From: Ilumatobacter sp.
GTDB lineage: Bacteria > Actinomycetota > Acidimicrobiia > Acidimicrobiales > Ilumatobacteraceae
Length of the DNA stretch: 24,000 nucleotides
Direction of reading: 5' to 3'
Assembly (NCBI GenBank): GCA_036526035.1
Contig: DATCZG010000017.1
Span: 42,773-66,772, forward strand
Position 1 is the stretch's first letter. Each line of letters starts with the position of its first letter. The translations under genes were made by a program, and so were the position numbers. The notes beneath the pieces are model-generated. The model ran no database searches. It saw only the letters and a program-made list of their open reading frames with translations, and was not told the origin of the DNA. Shown in pieces: positions 3,883 to 16,453 of the stretch.

Positions 3883-3906
3883 GACCTGGTCCGCCGACCT
3901 GCCGGT

Positions 3907-4398
3907 TCAGCCCGGCATCGTCTCGGGCGGGCCGACGTGTTCGAGCCGGGCGGTGAACCCGATGTACTGCCACATCATGTGCCCGCCCTCCCGCCAGCGC
4001 TTGACCTCGATCGGCATCCCCACCGGACGCAGCACGTGCACCCCGTGCTCGTAGGCGGCGACGACCGTGATCGGCGTGGCCTTGTCGAACTCGGCGACGT
4101 CGTGCACGCCGTGGCCGACGGTGCCGTCGCAGCGCATGTCGTGGATCACGCCGCCGGCGGTGACGACCATCCGGTCGCCGGCCTGCTCGACGCGTTGCAC
4201 GGCGCCGAGCAGCCGGTGTCCGGGCTGGGGCACCCCGTCGACGAGCACCTCGACGACGCGCCACCAGCCGCGCAGATCCGGTGCCCCGGCGACCGGCGGT
4301 TCGCCGCAGCCGGCGAGGATCGGCTCGGGCACCCGGTCGCCGTAGCCGCCGGCGGGCGTGTGGGCGACGGGGACCGTGTCGACGCTGCGGCCCGTCAC
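3907..4398 (-). CDS. Hypothetical protein, 163 aa, function unknown, translationally coupled to TetR
   Basis: The GTG at 4398-4396 overlaps the TetR stop (GTGA on the minus strand). The C-terminal 163 aa of the 383-aa track ORF have normal composition (…LRGWWRVVEVLVDGVPQPGHRLLGAVQRVEQAGDRMVVTAGG…HMMWQYIGFTARLEHVG). The upstream part of that ORF is Arg/Pro-rich and overlaps TetR out of frame. I do not recognise the family. Confidence 0.6.
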   Translation of the reverse strand: MTGRSVDTVPVAHTPAGGYGDRVPEPILAGCGEPPVAGAPDLRGWWRVVEVLVDGVPQPGHRLLGAVQRVEQAGDRMVVTAGGVIHDMRCDGTVGHGVHDVAEFDKATPITVVAAYEHGVHVLRPVGMPIEVKRWREGGHMMWQYIGFTARLEHVGPPETMPG

Positions 4399-5024
4399 GA
4401 CCCACCCGCCCCGGTGAGGGGGTGCGGTGTCAGCAGGTGCGACAGCGCGCGCTCCCAGGCCCGCCGCACCTGAGGTGGTGTGCGCCCGAGTTGGCGGCTG
4501 ACGAGATCCCACGACTCGAACGAGGTCAGGGCGCAGGCGGCGATCGTGATGTCGTCGGCGGCTGCCGGTGCCAACCGGGCGAGTTCCGGGTCGAAGTGGT
4601 GTCGCACCTGGTCGGCGAGGGTGGCGTTGATCAAATGCACCAACTGGTTCGCCTCCTCGACGTCGTGGGCGCGCAGGCGCACCAGCCGGCACATCGGTTC
4701 GGTGGTCTCGTAGAGCGTCGCCCGCGACTCGACGAAGTGGGCGATCCGCTCGTCGAGCGGGCCCTCGCCGACGCCGGGGATGTCGAACAGGTGGGCGTAG
4801 CGGTCGAAGTAGGTGTCGATCGTCTGACGCCGCAGGTCGTCGAGGGTCTCGAAGTAGCGGAACAGCGACGCCACCGACACCCCGGCGCGCGCCGCGACCT
4901 GGTCGGCGGTGGGGGGCAGGTTGCCTTCGAACACGAGGTCGATCATCGCCTCGCTGACGGCGGCGAGGCTGCGCTGCCGCCGCGCCCGGCGTCCGTCGAC
5001 ATTCGGTTCGTGCTCGACTGGCAT
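4395..5024 (-). CDS. TetR/AcrR family transcriptional regulator, 209 aa
   Basis: N-terminal TetR HTH (SLAAVSEAMIDLVFEGNLPPTADQVAARAGVSVASLFRYFETLDDL). ATG at 5024-5022 is preceded by GGGAGGAG 6 nt upstream. It is divergent from the sulfatase operon. Confidence 0.9.
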   Translation of the reverse strand: MPVEHEPNVDGRRARRQRSLAAVSEAMIDLVFEGNLPPTADQVAARAGVSVASLFRYFETLDDLRRQTIDTYFDRYAHLFDIPGVGEGPLDERIAHFVESRATLYETTEPMCRLVRLRAHDVEEANQLVHLINATLADQVRHHFDPELARLAPAAADDITIAACALTSFESWDLVSRQLGRTPPQVRRAWERALSHLLTPHPLTGAGGS

Positions 5025-5072
5025 GCGGTCTCCTCCCGGCGGACCAGTCGGGCGGCATCCCCGCTCGGTCCG

Positions 5073-5108
5073 ACTATTGATAGTAACACTCGCACCAGTT
5101 AGTGTCAC
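5073..5108. promoter_or_regulatory. Overlapping divergent promoters plus inverted repeats (candidate TetR operator)
   Basis: This is the most AT-rich spot of the window. Plus strand: TTGATA (5078-5083), 17 nt, TAGTGT (5101-5106). Minus strand: GTGACA (5108-5103), 17 nt, TACTAT (5085-5080). Inverted repeats: ACTAT-tg-ATAGT (5073-5084) and GTAACACT-N10-AGTGTCAC (5083-5108, 7/8 match). Confidence 0.55.
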
Positions 5109-9355: not shown

Positions 9356-9374
9356 GTGCGGCGAGGCGAAGCGC

Positions 9375-9824
9375 GTGACCGCCGTCGTCAAGACCCGGGT
9401 GGTCGCGTCCCCGAGCGAGCGGGTGTGGGACGTCCTCGCGGCGTTCGAACGCATCGCCGAATGGGCGCCGGAGGTCGATCACTCGAGCCTGCTCACCGAA
9501 CACGGGTCAGGCGTCGGAGCCGTCCGTCGGGTGCAGCTCGGGCGGATGGTGCTGACCGAGACGGTGCGTACCTGGCAGGCCGGCTCGGGCTTGTCGTACA
9601 CGATCGCAGGCCTGCCGCCGGTGGTGCGTTCGGTCGTCAACACCTGGCAGCTCGAGCCGGCGAGCGACGGCACGCTCGTCGTGTTGACCACCGAGATCGA
9701 CGCCGGCCCCCGGCCACCGCAGCTGTTGATCGCCCGGGCCGTCGGCCGCCGTCTCGGCGCCGCCGGCGACAGCATGCTCGCCGGACTCGCCGCACACCTC
9801 GAACGACAGGAGCGCCCGACATGA
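9375..9824 (+). CDS. SRPBCC (polyketide cyclase/dehydrase, lipid-binding START-like) family protein, 149 aa
   Basis: GTG at 9375 with GAGG about 8 nt upstream. Typical SRPBCC N-terminus (VVKTRVVASPSERVWDVLAAFERIAEWAP). The stop overlaps the next gene's ATG (ATGA at 9821-9824). The track ORF's N-terminal extension from 9240 is Pro/Arg-rich and lies over the stem-loop region. Confidence 0.75.
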   Translation: MTAVVKTRVVASPSERVWDVLAAFERIAEWAPEVDHSSLLTEHGSGVGAVRRVQLGRMVLTETVRTWQAGSGLSYTIAGLPPVVRSVVNTWQLEPASDGTLVVLTTEIDAGPRPPQLLIARAVGRRLGAAGDSMLAGLAAHLERQERPT

Positions 9825-12415
9825 GCACCACCCGCCCCGACGTGATCATCCTGATGACCGACGAGGAGCGCGCCGCGCCCCCGTACGAGTCCGACGACGT
9901 GGCGCGATGGCGACGCGAGACGCTCACCGGCGCCGCCTGGTTCGACGACCACGCCGTCAACTTCCGGCGCCACTACACCGGCTCGTTGGCATGCGTCCCC
10001 AGCCGGCCGACGATGTTCACCGGCCAGTACCCCGACCTGCACGGGGTCACCCAGACCGACGGGCTCGGCAAGATGCACGACGACACCCGGATGCGCTGGC
10101 TGCCCGCCGGTGAGGTGCCCACGCTCGGCAACTGGTTCCGGGCCGGCGGGTACGACACCCACTACGACGGCAAGTGGCACCTCTCCCACGCCGATCTGCA
10201 CGACGCCGACGGCCGCCGGTTGGACACCAACGACAGCGCCGGTGTCGTCGACGCCGCGGCGGTGCAGCGCTACCTCGACGCCGACCCGCTCGACCCCTAC
10301 GGGTTCTCGGGATGGGTCGGCCCGGAACCGCACGGCGGTTCGCTCGCCGACGCCGGCGTGCGCCGCGACCCCTTGATCGCGGCCCGGGTCGTCGCCTGGC
10401 TCCACGATCGCTACCAGCGGCGCCGCGCCGGCGACCCCGACGCCCAGCGGCCGTTCCTGCTCGTCGCCAGCTTCGTCAACCCACACGACATCGTGCTGTT
10501 CCCGCTGTGGTCGCGCCGCGGCGTTCCGCTCGAGTCGCCGTCGCCGCTCGACCCGCCGCCGGTCGCCGCCGCCCCGACCGCCGGCGAGGACCTCGCCGCC
10601 AAGCCGGCCGCCCAGATCGCCTACCGGGCGTCGTATCCCAGCGGGTACGGCCCGGCGGCCACGGTCGCCCGGCTCTACGACCAGCGTGCCCAGCAGTACC
10701 GCGACCTGTACCACCGGTTGCACGCCGAGGTCGACGGCCCGCTCGACCAGGTCCGCCGGGCGGTCACCGACGGCGGGTCCGAGCACGCCGTCATCGTGCG
10801 CACCAGCGACCACGGCGACCTGCTCGGCGCGCACGGTGGCCTGCACCAGAAGTGGTTCACGCTCTACGACGAGGCCACCCGGGTGCCGTTCTCGATCGCC
10901 CGGGTCGGCGCGGGTGCCACCACGGGCTCGGTGATCGCCGACGCCCCGACGTCGCACGTCGACCTCGTGCCGACCCTGCTCGCGGCGGCGGGCATCGACA
11001 CCGAGATGGCGGCCGAGGTGCTGCGCGAGTCGTTCAGCGAGGTGCACCCGCTGCCGGGCCGCAACCTGATGCCGGTCGTCGACGCCGTCGAGCCGGCCGA
11101 CCGCGACCGCCCGGTGTACCTGATGACCCGCGACAACATGCTCGAGGGCGACACGCTGGCGTCGGGCGTGGCACGCCGTCTGGGCCGCACCGCCAAGCCG
11201 CCCGCACCACTGCGGATCCGGGTGCCCGCCCACGTCGGCGCCAACTTCGAAGGGTTGGTGGCGCGGGTCGCCGACGCCGACGCCCCCGGCGCCGCCGGCC
11301 ACCTGTGGAAGCTGGTGCGCACGTTCGACGACCCGGCGACGTGGACCGAGCCGGGCGTCCGCCATCTCGCCGCCAGCGGCCCCGGCGGCGACGAGTACCG
11401 CACCCGCCCGGTGCCCGACCAGTGGGAGCTCTACGACCTCGACGCCGACCCGGCCGAGGCCGTCAACCGCTGGCGCGACCCGGCCGCCTCGGCGGTGTTC
11501 GACCACCTGCGCGGCGAGTTGAAGGCCGAGCGGGCACGCGCCGTGCCCGAACGCAACGCGCCGTGGCCGTACGCGGCACGGCGGTCGCCCGCCGGCCCGC
11601 CGCGCAAGCAGCCGCCACCCCCGGCGCGCGCCGCCCGGAAGCTGCTGCAGCGCCTCGGCATGCACCCCGACGACACCGAACCCTTCGAGGTCGACGTCGA
11701 CCTCAGCGGGCGGCGGGCGCTCGTCGTCGCCACCAACCACGGCACGCTCGACATCGGCAAGCCGACCGGCGTGTTCGCCAGCGAGATGACCGTGCCGTAC
11801 TACGCGTTCCACGACGCCGGCATGAGCGTCGACGTCGCCAGCCCCAACGGCGGCGTGATCCCGGTCGACCCGATGTCGCTCAAGCCGGTGATCCGCACCG
11901 CCGAGGACGACCGCTTCCTCGCCGACGACGACTTCCGGGCGAAGGTGACCGGTTCGTTCGCGATCGGCGACCTCGACATGACGGCCTACGACATCGTGTT
12001 CCTGGCCGGCGGCTGGGGGGCGGCGTTCGACTTCGGTTTCAGCGAGGCCCTGGCCACCAAGATCACCGAGGCGAACGCCGCCGGCAAGGTGATCGGCGGC
12101 GTCTGCCACGGCCCGCTCGGCCTGCGCAACGCACTCGGCACCGACGGCCGCCCGCTCGTCGAGGGCCGCCGCGTCACCGGGGTGTCCGACAAGCAGGTGC
12201 GCGAGCTGGGCATCGCGTCGACACCTCACCACCCCGAGGCCGAGCTGCGCCGGATGGGGGCGGCGTACGAATCGGTCAGCCGGTTCCGAGACCCGTTCGC
12301 CAACCACTGGGTCGTCGACGGCAACCTGGTGACCGGACAGAACCAGAACGCCGGGCCGATGGTGGCCCGCGAGATGCTCAAGCTGGTCGTCGACCGGCTC
12401 ACGGCGCAGGCCTGA
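9821..12415 (+). CDS. Fusion protein: N-terminal Cys-type sulfatase domain plus C-terminal DJ-1/PfpI/Hsp31-like (class I glutamine amidotransferase-like) domain, 864 aa
   Basis: Sulfatase part: DVIILMTDEER, formylglycine motif ACVPSRPTMFTGQYP (Cys58 codon 9992-9994), YDGKWHLS, RTSDHGDLLGAHGGLHQKWFTLYDEATRVPFSI. A Pro/Arg-rich linker follows (…SPAGPPRKQPPPPARAARK…). DJ-1/Hsp31 part from about 11711: ALVVATNHG…YDIVFLAGGWGAAFDF…GKVIGGVCHGPLGL (nucleophile Cys codon 12104-12106, followed by His)…VVDGNLVTGQNQNAG. Confidence 0.9.
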   Translation: MSTTRPDVIILMTDEERAAPPYESDDVARWRRETLTGAAWFDDHAVNFRRHYTGSLACVPSRPTMFTGQYPDLHGVTQTDGLGKMHDDTRMRWLPAGEVPTLGNWFRAGGYDTHYDGKWHLSHADLHDADGRRLDTNDSAGVVDAAAVQRYLDADPLDPYGFSGWVGPEPHGGSLADAGVRRDPLIAARVVAWLHDRYQRRRAGDPDAQRPFLLVASFVNPHDIVLFPLWSRRGVPLESPSPLDPPPVAAAPTAGEDLAAKPAAQIAYRASYPSGYGPAATVARLYDQRAQQYRDLYHRLHAEVDGPLDQVRRAVTDGGSEHAVIVRTSDHGDLLGAHGGLHQKWFTLYDEATRVPFSIARVGAGATTGSVIADAPTSHVDLVPTLLAAAGIDTEMAAEVLRESFSEVHPLPGRNLMPVVDAVEPADRDRPVYLMTRDNMLEGDTLASGVARRLGRTAKPPAPLRIRVPAHVGANFEGLVARVADADAPGAAGHLWKLVRTFDDPATWTEPGVRHLAASGPGGDEYRTRPVPDQWELYDLDADPAEAVNRWRDPAASAVFDHLRGELKAERARAVPERNAPWPYAARRSPAGPPRKQPPPPARAARKLLQRLGMHPDDTEPFEVDVDLSGRRALVVATNHGTLDIGKPTGVFASEMTVPYYAFHDAGMSVDVASPNGGVIPVDPMSLKPVIRTAEDDRFLADDDFRAKVTGSFAIGDLDMTAYDIVFLAGGWGAAFDFGFSEALATKITEANAAGKVIGGVCHGPLGLRNALGTDGRPLVEGRRVTGVSDKQVRELGIASTPHHPEAELRRMGAAYESVSRFRDPFANHWVVDGNLVTGQNQNAGPMVAREMLKLVVDRLTAQA

Positions 12416-13265: not shown

Positions 13266-14069
13266 TCAGTCGGCGAGCGTGCCGGCGAACACCTGCCAGG
13301 CGAGGGCGCTCTTGGCGGCCAGGCTGAGCACGAGGTACACCTGCTCGCCGTAGAGGTAGTCGGCGAACCTGCCGCGGCCGCGGTACTGCAGCCACTGGTT
13401 GAGGGCGAAGCAGTTGAACAGCACGAACAGCGACACGAAGATGCCGTACACGAAGCCGGGCACGCCGTCGCCTTCGCGTTGTGAGGTGATCAGCGCGATC
13501 GCGATCACGATCCAGGGCACGATGCCGGCGAGGCCGCCCAGCGTGAACGGCCACCAGTCGACCGGGTCGCCGGGCCGGTTGGTGCGTTCCATCAGCCAGC
13601 CGAAGGCGATCATCGCGGCGTTGACGGCGAACAGCCCGATCAGGGCGTAGAGGTTGGTGATCCCGGGCAGCATCGCGATCAGCACGACCATCAGCGAGGC
13701 GCTCACCGAGTACTCGATCCACCGGGCGACGTTGATGCCGCGTCGCAGGTTCGCCTCGTACCAGCCGACGACGCCCGGGGCGGCCATCAGCAGGTGATCG
13801 GCGGCGGCGAGGAACAGGAACACCGCGATCGCGACCGAGAACCGGAGATCGAAGAACACGTGCTCGATCGTGAGCGGGGTGCCGGGAGGCCCGTCCTGCA
13901 CCGGCGCCCCCACCGCGATCGCGAAGCCGTTGCCGAGCAGCAGGATCAGCACGCCCTGTGCGAGGTGGGCGACGCCGACGCCGACGTTCCAGCGCCGCAG
14001 GCGTGCCAGGCGGTCGACCACCGGGGCGCTGGTCGGATCGACGCTGGTCGGATCGGCGCTGGTGCTCAC
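13266..14069 (-). CDS. Heliorhodopsin (retinal-binding 7-TM photoreceptor, inverted topology), about 267 aa
   Basis: Block-by-block resemblance to heliorhodopsin 48C12 as I remember it: GVAHLAQ (TM1 His), ADHLLM (TM2 His), RWIEYSVSASLMVVLIA (counterion Glu), VNAAMIAFGWL, PGFVYGIFVSLFVLFNCFALNQWLQYRGRG, YLVLSLAAKSALAWQVFAGTL (Schiff-base Lys codon 13311-13313). The start is uncertain. GTG 14069 is chosen because it is the first start codon after ATG 14204. The 14070-14204 stretch has lower GC3 and overlaps the upstream gene's end. Confidence 0.9.
   Translation of the reverse strand: MSTSADPTSVDPTSAPVVDRLARLRRWNVGVGVAHLAQGVLILLLGNGFAIAVGAPVQDGPPGTPLTIEHVFFDLRFSVAIAVFLFLAAADHLLMAAPGVVGWYEANLRRGINVARWIEYSVSASLMVVLIAMLPGITNLYALIGLFAVNAAMIAFGWLMERTNRPGDPVDWWPFTLGGLAGIVPWIVIAIALITSQREGDGVPGFVYGIFVSLFVLFNCFALNQWLQYRGRGRFADYLYGEQVYLVLSLAAKSALAWQVFAGTLAD
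14028..14063. repeat. 15-nt in-frame tandem repeat in the heliorhodopsin N-terminal tail
   Basis: GCTGGTCGGATCGAC (14028-14042), GCTGGTCGGATCGGC (14043-14057) and partial GCTGGT (14058-14063). On the minus strand this encodes S-ADPTS-VDPTS-A. Confidence 0.75.
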
Positions 14070-14181
14070 GGGGGTGCTCGCTTTCGGTCGGGTGGGTGCC
14101 GGCGAAGCTCGCGCGTCGCACCCGGTCGTGCCAGATGGAACAGCGGTCGATGGTGGATATTCCCGTCGTCGTTCGCCGGGA

Positions 14182-15012
14182 TCACTCCCCGTGGGCCGGC
14201 ACACCGGCGGTGAACACCGGCCGGTCCGCGGCCCGGCGCACGGTGGTGCGAGCCCGGGCGACCAGGTCGGCGAGCGGCTGTCCGGCGCCGCCGACGAGGG
14301 TGGCGACCCCCGCGGCCGCGAGGTCGCCGGCGGCAGCCGCGGCGGTCGCCGCCACGTCCGGCTGGGTGACGGTGATCACGGCGACGTCGACGCCGTTCCC
14401 GGTGCAGAACCGGATGAACTCGGCCGCCGGGAGGTCGGCCCCGAGGTGGTGCACGTGCCAGTGGTCGGCCCGCAGGGCGACCGCCGCCATGGTGGTCGGC
14501 AACGAATGCCGGTCGCCCGACAGCGCGGCCACCGCAGCGGTGCCGCGGCGGCGGCCGCGCGGGTTCGGGGCGAGCTCGCCGAGCAACCGTTCGACGATCG
14601 CCGACGCCCGGTGTTCGGCCCAGATCGTGAGGTCGCCCGTCGACCAGGCGCTGCCGATCGCCCGCAACGACGGGGCGAGCACCTGCTCGACGAGATCGAG
14701 GATCGGTGTGCCCTCGGCGACCAGGCGGGTGGCGATCCGGACGGCGGCGGCCTCGTCGCCGGCGACCAGCGCGGCGTGCATCCGCTCGGCGGCGTGGTGC
14801 ATCCGGGCCGGTCGCGGCGGTGGCGGCGCCTGCGGCGCCCGCCGCGACCGCTCGAGTTCGGCGGCCGCCGAACGCGACACCAGGTAACGACCGGCGACCA
14901 TCTCGGCCGGCAGGGTCCCGTTGCGCACCCATCGGTAGGCGGTCTGGTAGTGCACGCCGAGCAGTTCGGCGGCCGCCGCCAACTCGACTCGTTCCTCGGC
15001 CGCTGCATCCAC
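14182..15012 (-). CDS. HTH (excisionase/MerR-superfamily) plus cobalamin(B12)-binding domain transcriptional regulator, CarH/LitR-like candidate photoreceptor, 276 aa
   Basis: N-terminal HTH AAAELLGVHYQTAYRWVRNGTLPAEMVAGRYLVS. Helical-bundle motif W-x9-EH = W123 STGDLTIWA E133 H134 (codons 14646-14611). B12-binding Rossmann part with SGDRHSLP (D-x-H-x-x-P; His169 codon 14508-14506), …DVAVITVT…, …LVGGAG. GTG start at 15012. Confidence 0.85.
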   Translation of the reverse strand: MDAAAEERVELAAAAELLGVHYQTAYRWVRNGTLPAEMVAGRYLVSRSAAAELERSRRAPQAPPPPRPARMHHAAERMHAALVAGDEAAAVRIATRLVAEGTPILDLVEQVLAPSLRAIGSAWSTGDLTIWAEHRASAIVERLLGELAPNPRGRRRGTAAVAALSGDRHSLPTTMAAVALRADHWHVHHLGADLPAAEFIRFCTGNGVDVAVITVTQPDVAATAAAAAGDLAAAGVATLVGGAGQPLADLVARARTTVRRAADRPVFTAGVPAHGE

Positions 15013-15122
15013 GGCCGTACCGTAGGCCTGCGGTCACCTTTGTGCACTAACCAGCGCTGAATCGGTGCCGTGCTCGTCGCCCGGCCGCGGCGGCTGATGG
15101 TCCGCCCGCCGGACGCGACGCC

Positions 15123-15152: not shown

Positions 15153-15187
15153 CTTCGGCCCCTGCCGCCAGCGTGAACGGAGACGAC

Positions 15188-16453
15188 GTGACCACCACCC
15201 CACGAGCCGCCGAGCCGGCCTTGCCGGCGACCACCGACGTCGTGATCGTCGGTGCCGGCCTGGCCGGTCTCGCCGCGGCGCGGGTGCTGTGCGATGCCGG
15301 CCGCGACGTGGTGCTGCTCGAGGCGTCCGACGGGGTCGGCGGCCGGGTCCGCACCGACGTCGTCGACGGGTTCCGGCTCGACCGCGGCTTCCAGGTGCTG
15401 CTCACCGCCTACCCCGAGCTGCACACCCAGTTCGACCTCGACGCGCTCGACCTGCGGCGCTTCGAGCCGGGGGCGATGGTGTGGAACGGCTCGTCGCTGC
15501 ACCTGGTGGGCGACCCGTTCCGGCGCCCCCGCACGCTCCTCGCAACTGCCACGGCACCGGTCGGGTCGATCGCCGACAAGCTGCGCATCCTGCGCCAGCG
15601 GGTTCGTCTCGCCCGTTCCGGCGCCCCCGATCTGCTGCGGGGCGACGACGTCTCGACGATCGCCGCGCTGCGCGCCCAGGGGTTCAGCGACCGGATCGTC
15701 GAACGTTTCTTCCGGCCGCTGGTGGGCGGCATCCAACTCGACCCGGCGCTCGCCACCAGCCGGCGGATGTTCGACGTCATCCTGCGCAGCCTGATCGAGG
15801 GTGACGTGGCCGTGCCGGCGGCGGGCATGGGGGCGATCCCCGCCCAGCTGGCCGGTCACCTGCCCCCCGGGGTGGTCCGGCTCGGCACCGAGGTCGCCGC
15901 CGTCGCCCCGGGCGGGGTCACCGTCGCCGACGGCCGCCACATCGGCGCGCCGCGGGTGATCGTGGCCACCGAGGGGCCCCGGGCGGCGGCGCTGCTGGGC
16001 CTGCCGGAGGTCGGCTCCAAGCCGGCGTCGTGCGTGTGGTACGCGGCCGACGCCGCCCCGATCGACGGCCGCTACATCGTGCTCGACGGCACCGGCCGCG
16101 GGCCGGCGCTCAACACGTCGGTGATGAGCAACGTCGCCCCCGAGTACGCCCCGGGCGGTCAGGCCTTGATCGCCGCCGCCTGCCCGGGGGTCCACGACCC
16201 GGCGATCGAGCCGGCGGTGCGGGCCCAACTGCGGGCGATGTGGGGCCCGGCGGTCGACGCGTGGCGCCACCTGCGCACCGATGCGATCCTCCACGGCCAG
16301 CCCCGCCAGGAACCACCGTTCGATCCGCGTCGGCGGGTGGCCCTCGGCGACGGCCTGTTCGTCTGCGGCGACCACCGCGACACGGCCTCGATCCAGGGCG
16401 CTTTGTTCTCGGGTCGGCGCTGCGGCGAGGCGGTCGCCGCATCGTTCACCTGA
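15188..16453 (+). CDS. NAD(P)/FAD-dependent oxidoreductase, amine-oxidase/phytoene-desaturase-like fold, about 421 aa
   Basis: Rossmann dinucleotide motif DVVIVGAGLAGLAAARVL…VVLLEASDGVGGRV. C-terminal flavin motif LFVCGDHRDTASIQGALFSGRRCGEAV. GTG 15188 has GGAG 5 nt upstream. The in-frame GTG 15173 (track start) is an alternative. Confidence 0.85.
   Translation: MTTTPRAAEPALPATTDVVIVGAGLAGLAAARVLCDAGRDVVLLEASDGVGGRVRTDVVDGFRLDRGFQVLLTAYPELHTQFDLDALDLRRFEPGAMVWNGSSLHLVGDPFRRPRTLLATATAPVGSIADKLRILRQRVRLARSGAPDLLRGDDVSTIAALRAQGFSDRIVERFFRPLVGGIQLDPALATSRRMFDVILRSLIEGDVAVPAAGMGAIPAQLAGHLPPGVVRLGTEVAAVAPGGVTVADGRHIGAPRVIVATEGPRAAALLGLPEVGSKPASCVWYAADAAPIDGRYIVLDGTGRGPALNTSVMSNVAPEYAPGGQALIAAACPGVHDPAIEPAVRAQLRAMWGPAVDAWRHLRTDAILHGQPRQEPPFDPRRRVALGDGLFVCGDHRDTASIQGALFSGRRCGEAVAASFT

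Follow-up and report, generated by a model that had tools for sequence, protein, structure and literature searches.

A CarH-like B12-binding regulator beside a heliorhodopsin gene in Ilumatobacter and the case for light-gated rhodopsin expression

To our knowledge, the function of heliorhodopsins is unsettled, and rhodopsin gene regulation in non-model Actinomycetota is almost unknown. We examined a 24,000-nt stretch of an Ilumatobacter sp. contig (DATCZG010000017.1, positions 42,773 to 66,772; hereafter the window; G+C content 70-76%), in which the gene for a B12-binding regulator that we call REG (14182..15012, minus strand; 276 aa) is followed on the same strand, after a spacer of 112 nt (14070..14181, minus strand), by a heliorhodopsin (HeR) gene (13266..14069, minus strand; 267 aa, GTG start at 14069). 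The locus raises the question whether REG controls HeR expression in response to light, whether the two proteins form one two-chromophore module, or whether their adjacency is a leftover of deletion. The first two possibilities had been raised in an earlier note on this DNA, whose coordinates, strand and spacer length were all correct, as judged by matches to the open reading frames (ORFs) and by a public gene call of the same scaffold with identical HeR boundaries. We regard light-gated HeR expression by a CarH-like REG as the best explanation overall and as a probable one; a CarH-like mechanism for the REG family is quite likely, and the chances of effective light control of HeR in the window's own genome are evenly balanced.

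REG matched the Pfam models HTH_17 (8.6e-9), B12-binding_2 (4e-12) and B12-binding (1e-6), the last slightly below its cutoff, and no MerR model. Its motif consists of W123, E133-H134 and D167-x-H169, i.e., W-x9-EH with a His 35 residues on (W-x9-EH-x34-H), and the spacing is identical to that of W131/E141-H142/H177, the key adenosylcobalamin (AdoCbl)-binding residues of CarH (PMC11796333). A wider signature of light-responsive cobalamin-binding domains, GxxW / EH / GxxH / GxxxP, was found in 1561 of 128,000 B12-binding domains (PMC11796333), and REG carries all of it (G120-S-A-W123, E133-H134, G166-D-R-H169 and G191-A-D-L-P195). In an alignment of 29 homologues, W123, E133, H134, H169, G120, G166, G191 and P195 were all invariant, so that the motif which the earlier note had read from a single sequence held across these homologues with its CarH spacing. 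In addition, H169 of REG aligned with the region of the axial His in photocobilin and CtMerR. Note that the motif comparison rests on the photocobilin and CtMerR alignments, on the spacing and on the published signature rather than on a residue-by-residue alignment with the Thermus thermophilus CarH (TtCarH).

The closest PDB sequences to REG were the photocobilins 8J2W and 8J2X (6.6e-18), followed by CtMerR 8JBS (1.4e-14) and TtCarH (~1e-7); proven photoreceptor domains outranked methionine synthase and corrinoid proteins among these matches. In an AlphaFold2 model of REG (pLDDT 93), residues 8-58 formed a winged helix and residues 68-147 a four-helix bundle, after which came a Rossmann domain. 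In Foldseek, this model matched full-length chains of TtCarH (5C8D, 5C8E and 5C8F; 6e-12 to 1e-9 over 263-296 columns) in an alignment that takes in the DNA-binding domain, and it also matched the cobalamin-binding domains of photocobilin and CtMerR. Membership of the CarH family itself was rejected, given that the match to the NCBIfam CarH equivalog model reached 51.2 bits (cutoff 400) and covered residues 72-245, the B12 module only. A MerR-type DNA-binding domain was likewise rejected, as the Pfam match in this region was to HTH_17. Taken together, the motifs, the fold and the tandem-repeat operator described below support REG as a CarH-like B12 light sensor at the level of mechanism; the same label in the earlier note is thus retained for the mechanism and given up for the family.

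At least 866 homologues share the three Pfam domains of REG, and those with a taxon name belong to Ilumatobacter or Ilumatobacteraceae. Species-representative genomes contained at least 475 REG loci, 80 of which were fetched for neighbourhood and operator work (labels from L001 onward denote fetched loci). The labels of these 80 loci are Acidimicrobiia or a higher actinobacterial rank, except for one Nocardioides (L075). Locus counts were taken from tblastn because our own GC3-based gene caller was crude, overlooking REG in 24 loci and HeR in several. The DNA upstream of REG contains four direct repeats in an AT-rich array, which has a 10-bp period, a TTAGY core and the consensus nTTAGCnnnnTTTAGTnnnATTTAGTnnnnnTTAGTGCnAATT. 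An array with at least 13 of 16 core matches was present in 56 of 79 loci, compared with 1 of 1580 shuffles. Period 10 gave a mean best score (out of 16) of 13.5, and periods 9, 11, 12 and 13 gave 8.6-8.9. The 11-bp period of CarH, which was tried first, scored at chance. With a position-weight matrix, one strong site per locus was obtained, reaching up to 64 bits and typically ending ~27 nt before the REG start. The array overlaps the -35 region of the REG promoter; in 49 of 57 loci, a -10-like TAnnnT stands 23-28 nt past the fourth repeat, and in 39 of 52 the start codon comes 6-7 nt after this element, indicating a leaderless REG mRNA. Sites of only two repeats beside REG occur as a natural variant in another whole subclade (e.g., L016, L022, L069 and L077).

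CarH operators consist of 3-4 tandem direct repeats that overlap the promoter, with 11-bp units of the form nAnnTnnACAn (PMC8156234). The class I CarH/LitR photoreceptor repressors (of Thermus thermophilus and Bacillus megaterium, and CarH of Myxococcus xanthus) resemble REG in the winged helix, the W-x9-EH four-helix bundle and the Rossmann domain with an axial His at identical spacing, as well as in the 3-4 tandem direct repeats over the promoter, in a gene that is autoregulated or divergent, and in light-related targets. On the other hand, they combine a MerR domain with 11-bp repeats, whereas REG combines an excisionase-type HTH_17 domain with 10-bp TTAGY repeats; since the DNA-binding domain differs, a repeat unlike that of CarH fits. 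Their targets are carotenoid operons, whereas those of REG appear to be rhodopsin genes, blh/crtY and Dps, and the REG family was confined to Acidimicrobiia in this sample. The closest solved cobalamin-binding domains by sequence and fold, those of CtMerR and of the photocobilins (SasPcob 8J2W and AbDPcob 8J2Y; SignatureFinder, PMC11796333), bear the same signature, and one photocobilin is from an Acidimicrobiaceae bacterium. Photocobilins, however, have no DNA-binding domain but one that binds biliverdin, in some cases together with GGDEF, and the DNA-binding domain of CtMerR is MerR, whereas REG has neither a biliverdin-binding nor a MerR domain. The AerR/PpaA antirepressors of purple bacteria share B12-binding_2 and B12-binding with REG and control pigment genes in a light-dependent manner, but they have no DNA-binding domain and exert their effect via CrtJ/PpsR, whereas REG has its own DNA-binding domain and a repeat operator.

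The main partner of the REG family is a xanthorhodopsin-type pump, not HeR. A gene of this type was divergent from REG across the repeat array in 33 of the 75 loci with enough upstream sequence. The encoded type-1 rhodopsin, a member of the xanthorhodopsin / Gloeobacter-rhodopsin family, matched Pfam Bac_rhodopsin (3.3e-38) and psXR (1.8e-83) and carries the D..T..E and Lys motifs. In 34 of 36 cases, a 3-repeat site scoring 15 bits or more was present within 220 nt upstream of the type-1 rhodopsin gene. Blh (PF15461) and lycopene cyclase genes lay convergent downstream of REG in 11 of 57 loci, and some rhodopsin was found within the fetched flanks of 43 of the 80. Recurrent neighbours included a WhiB-like gene, a gene for a 75-aa membrane protein (c2), Dps and two glycosyltransferases.

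Further details of these neighbourhoods were as follows. With REG placed at ~10001, L008, L010, L012, L014, L019, L041 and others have the rhodopsin at -116 to -170, Blh at +30 to +1000 and CrtY next. The convergent c2-crtY-blh string downstream in rhodopsin-type loci has its own repeat site in some cases (28 bits in L027 and 20 bits in L043). The c2 product is conserved, ~75 aa long, with a hydrophobic, probably membrane-spanning core and no Pfam match; its gene follows REG in L007, L009, L013 and L068, is divergent in L016, L022, L031, L037, L042, L044, L055 and L072, heads the crtY-blh string in type-A loci, and in many cases is accompanied by a separate 3-repeat site that ends in TTTATTCC. 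A WhiB-family gene lies beyond the rhodopsin in most type-A loci (L014, L018, L019 and others, at ~-1020) and is directly divergent from REG in 8 loci (including L036, L040, L054, L058, L078 and L079); a repeat site was found upstream of it in 7 of 29.

HeR of the window matched Pfam PF18761 (1.7e-93; 312.9 bits against a cutoff of 26.7), the NCBIfam HeR model (298.1 bits; cutoff 100) and, by phmmer, 48C12 (6SU3; 4.4e-67), so that both curated models place it in the heliorhodopsin family, as had been proposed. Its H35, H92, E119 and K253 correspond to H23, H80, E107 and K241 of 48C12 at a constant offset of 12, read from the printed alignment to the near-identical top match 9LJJ, and they were invariant across 9 HeRs. 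Judged from its sequence, the gene is intact, with the Schiff-base Lys, the Glu counterion and the two conserved His all kept.

In a neighbour-joining tree, the window REG grouped with L001-L007, L009, L013, L024, L046 and L068. Seven of the 13 members of this clade, the window included, have a same-strand HeR gene downstream, and two have a type-1 rhodopsin there instead. With L161, which was fetched later and stands outside the tree, the order REG then HeR on one strand was found in at least 8 loci of different species (L001, L002, L006, L013, L024, L046, L161 and the window), and the aligned HeRs of such loci were 52-79% identical. In the relatives, a shorter, inverted repeat site, GGAATAAATAnGACTnAATGATGTTgAAC, which we call P2, lies 30-100 nt past the REG stop and precedes c2, Dps or NmrA-DUF2867...HeR. 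The usual order is REG, P2, (c2) / Dps / (SRPBCC) / NmrA-DUF2867 / HeR, with HeR last. In L161, for example, GT5 and GT3 genes are divergent across a four-repeat operator of 52 bits from REG, P2 (16 bits), Dps, SRPBCC, NmrA/NAD-binding-DUF2867 and HeR on the other strand, and the genes from Dps through HeR overlap by 1-4 nt. The order in L006 is a divergent flavin amine-oxidase-type gene (AOX, see below), then REG, P2, Dps and HeR; that in L002 is REG, P2, NmrA-DUF2867 and, 8 nt on, HeR. The window shares its gene order with L006 on either side, except that Dps is missing. By its sequence, it is a shortened version of the HeR-clade locus, in which the intervening genes are gone, two of the four upstream repeats remain and P2 is eroded.

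Two features of this clade are recorded here for the genes around HeR. A conserved gene cluster on the opposite strand upstream of REG, divergent from it (L001-L005, L007, L009, L011, L013, L015, L024, L046 and L161), encodes a HEAT-repeat + GT1 glycosyltransferase, a UDPGT-type glycosyltransferase, an AOX flavoprotein and DUF2071, and the window keeps the flavoprotein only; the cluster may be a light-induced set for lipid or carotenoid modification. An NmrA/NAD_binding_10 + DUF2867 gene stands immediately upstream of HeR in L161 (5469-6935), L002 (10956-12437), L013 (12004-13872) and L001 (12452-13306), overlapping it by 4 nt in L161 and L001 and leaving a gap of 8-12 nt in L002 and L013; in L001 the gene is truncated or split, and the ORF called there comprises DUF2867 only. 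Such genes were also seen near HeR in L083, L084, L108-L110, L112, L114, L134, L135, L139, L145, L154 and L158.

How much of the regulatory DNA survives in the window can be read at the orthologous positions. A REG-promoter half operator (R3+R4; 15039..15063, minus strand) scored 24.0 bits with the half-site matrix, compared with 3.1 for the next-best site in the window and a maximum of 18.3 over 30 shuffles. R3 is TTCAGC (15056-15061) and R4 is TTAGTG (15045-15050), 10 bp apart, and R4 overlaps a -35-like TGCACA (15041-15046); the family repeats R1 and R2 are lost. The -10-like TACGGT (15019-15024) and the GTG start (15010-15012), read directly from the sequence as one element (15010..15024, minus strand), are separated by 6 nt, which implies, as a reading of the sequence, that REG mRNA of the window is leaderless or nearly so. 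An eroded P2 remnant, GGAATATCCACCATCGACCGCTGTTCCATC (14134..14163, minus strand), was recognised by aligning the spacers that follow REG; its GGAATA (14158-14163) is invariant in all 8 aligned spacers, the window included. In the relatives, the P2 half-site scored 16-22 bits (L001, L002, L006, L013, L007, L068 and L161), and L009 scored 10.6 bits with the full matrix. No operator stands directly upstream of HeR in the window, L001, L002, L006, L013, L024 or L046; L052 alone has such a site (15.6 bits). Within the 112-nt spacer itself, scans with the position-weight matrices gave no recognisable repeat operator, and a simple scan found no terminator-like hairpin; the spacer RNA folded no better than shuffles (z = -0.94). 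The absence of a terminator stated in the earlier note thus agrees with both analyses.

We therefore propose the following scheme as a model. REG would be an AdoCbl-based light-sensing repressor whose DNA-binding domain is HTH_17 and not MerR. By analogy with CarH, a B12-bound REG oligomer would sit in the dark on the tandem 10-bp repeats, which overlap the REG -35 region and the divergent promoter; on illumination (green, blue or UV), the Co-C bond would be cleaved, the oligomer would come apart and transcription would be turned on. The family would in this way gate rhodopsin and associated photoprotection genes, with HeR as a target in one clade, where it is the last gene of a P2-headed operon. 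In the window, this operon would have collapsed to REG-112 nt-HeR, and HeR would be read from the autoregulated REG promoter or from the decayed P2, making it light-induced. The relation of REG to HeR would be that of a regulator to its target, not that of parts of a joint sensor. Control of HeR is probably leakier in the window than in its relatives because only two of the four upstream repeats survive and P2 is eroded.

Several observations weigh against this scheme. At the protein level, the B12-binding match of REG (29 bits) is just below the Pfam gathering cutoff of 32.1, and the position after the conserved Trp is S124 (14643-14645) in the window, where TtCarH has H132, which we take to be the residue that forms the bis-His photoproduct. 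About half of the REG homologues have His at this position, and N, R, Q, A, E or Y occurs in the others. That REG binds cobalamin and DNA, forms oligomers and undergoes photolysis is inferred, and the promoter and leaderless-start assignments are pattern-based. At the locus level, REG and HeR adjoin without an intervening gene in the window only, and 1-4 genes lie between them in every relative. The full four-repeat matrix scored -12.7 in the window, which is not above chance, and the P2 half-site only 1.5 bits; with the full operator at chance level and P2 almost gone, HeR may have escaped REG control here. Moreover, in a sample centred on HeR (80 metagenome loci, HeRs 48-78% identical), a B12 regulator was found in 1 locus (L135), with a different architecture, and 516 kb of sequence from these loci contained no repeat operator. 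In published actinobacterial HeR windows, the B12-domain link amounts to 0.7-2% (Chazan et al., Dataset S3, 10.1101/2021.02.16.431466).

In a rival reading, the adjacency is left over from deletion: REG would autoregulate and might control AOX, and HeR, uncoupled by the loss of Dps and NmrA-DUF2867 and by the decay of P2, would run on its own light-independent promoter here. We hold this to be unlikely, though it is favoured by the P2 score of the window (1.5 bits vs 16-22 in most relatives), by the retention of only two of four repeats at the REG promoter, and by the fact that most HeRs, including the 76%-identical ones of L083 and L084, have no REG or operator nearby. However, REG and HeR are on the same strand with no terminator detected by the scans of the gap between them, two-repeat sites beside the REG promoter also occur naturally in a whole subclade (e.g., L016, L022, L069 and L077), and REG itself is intact with all its invariant residues kept. 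Light gating of HeR remains the better supported reading through the REG-promoter operator in relatives, the at least 8 same-strand loci and L135, and its strength in the window is uncertain because the operators there are degraded.

L135 (6936-11299) deserves separate mention. Its regulator, from a lower-GC lineage and unrelated to REG, has B12-binding_2 and B12-binding first, a C-terminal HTH_3 and the W-x9-EH motif; divergent from its gene are a small membrane ORF, HeR and a gene for a pyrimidine-dimer DNA glycosylase, and NAD-binding and DUF2867 ORFs lie on its other side. As a regulator of another architecture occurs in the same neighbourhood, a functional link is favoured over inherited synteny. 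REG as a general neighbour of HeR was nevertheless rejected, since the single case among the 80 HeR-centred loci is of this other architecture, and so was regulation in trans of REG-less HeR loci through the operator, for which the 516 kb contained no sites. Surveyed from the HeR side, proximity to a B12 regulator is therefore rare.

That REG might sense cobalamin availability or redox state instead of light is improbable in our judgement. B12-binding domains are mostly non-photoreceptors, as the 1561 signature-bearing domains among 128,000 illustrate (PMC11796333), and the TtCarH His next to the Trp is not conserved in the REG family. On the other hand, the complete photoreceptor signature is invariant in REG homologues, the nearest solved relatives are photoreceptors, and REG is surrounded by genes for rhodopsins, blh, crtY and Dps instead of genes for B12 uptake or for enzymes that depend on B12. 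Least probable is a physical two-chromophore module, in which HeR would signal to REG or be read out by it: the two genes are adjacent and HeRs are reported to act through protein partners, but the usual partner of REG is a proton pump across a common operator (33 of 75 loci), 1-4 genes separate REG from HeR in every relative, REG is a complete stand-alone CarH-like unit, and such a regulator accompanies 1 of 80 HeR-centred loci, so that we set aside this second suggestion of the earlier note as unsupported.

A broader extension of the light-gating model is that the HTH_17-B12 family is a master light switch for Ilumatobacteraceae rhodopsins, in which a B12 photoreceptor responding to green light would determine the timing of retinal photoreceptor production. 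HeR would then close a photoprotection operon induced by light, and the translationally coupled NmrA-DUF2867 protein would be its functional partner. We put this forward very tentatively, on the grounds of the 4-nt overlaps in L161 and L001, the presence of DUF2867 near HeR in 13 of the 80 HeR-centred loci, and the recurrence of the trio HeR, B12 regulator and NmrA-DUF2867 in L135. The NmrA-DUF2867 protein is in this respect a candidate HeR partner, and its gene is absent from the window. In Dataset S3 of Chazan et al. (10.1101/2021.02.16.431466), which covers 876 actinobacterial HeR-A windows, DUF2867 was listed in 21 windows (18 of 21 co-oriented, at a median distance of 1 gene), PF02310 in 18, HTH_17 in 9 and PF02607 in 6.

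Cobalamin-binding proteins were already among the families enriched near HeRs and DTE proton pumps in that survey (Chazan et al., 10.1101/2021.02.16.431466). The bare pairing of HeR with a cobalamin-binding neighbour, which the earlier note had thought undescribed, is thus known from its neighbour tables (PF02607 in 6 of 876). The survey is a statistical listing, without a regulator family, operator, operon structure or mechanism. In the literature searched, which left most subscription journals outside, we found none of the following described: the HTH_17-B12 family, the 10-bp operator of four repeats that goes with it, its dominant xanthorhodopsin/blh/crtY association, the Dps/NmrA-DUF2867/HeR operon, or a B12 regulator of actinorhodopsin or acidirhodopsin. 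The REG loci offer a concrete, testable circuit at xanthorhodopsin, retinal-synthesis and, in one clade, HeR operons. If the model is true, one pigment (B12) decides when retinal proteins are built, HeR falls in a light-induced set with Dps and NmrA-DUF2867 that narrows the search for HeR partners, and a new pair of DNA-binding domain and operator becomes available to the CarH optogenetic toolbox.

On the other side of REG, an intergenic region of 160 nt is common to REG and the divergent AOX gene (15173..16453, plus strand), which encodes a flavin amine-oxidase / CrtI-superfamily oxidoreductase (Pfam Amino_oxidase, 6.1e-43; an HpnE-like match of 81 bits was below cutoff). AOX is also divergent from REG in L006 and L068 and lies 3.5 kb upstream in L001, L002, L013, L024 and L046; it is possibly a member of the REG regulon. 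A scan for E. coli-type sigma-70 hexamer promoters gave nothing in this 75% GC region, such hexamers being uninformative for Actinomycetota. The other window genes scanned encode MFS, sulfatases, an alpha/beta hydrolase, a sulfatase-DJ-1 fusion, DUF427, SDR, an acyl-CoA synthetase and an S9 peptidase, and the public gene call on the same scaffold added PAP2 and, separately, a beta-lactamase-fold gene. As the earlier note had stated, no blh, crt or cobalamin-synthesis gene was among the scanned genes (796-2639 and 3906-5103 lay outside the annotation). The sulfatase fused to a DJ-1/PfpI domain (9356-12415, plus strand) adjoins the HeR locus, and its position is kept in L001, L002, L006 and L013. 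In the public scaffold of the locus (ENA ERZ23499475; L164 3473-3575), a 119-nt insertion within AOX, relative to window positions 15999-16014, splits the AOX gene call in two, and the 426-aa AOX ORF of the window is intact and aligns end to end with its relatives.

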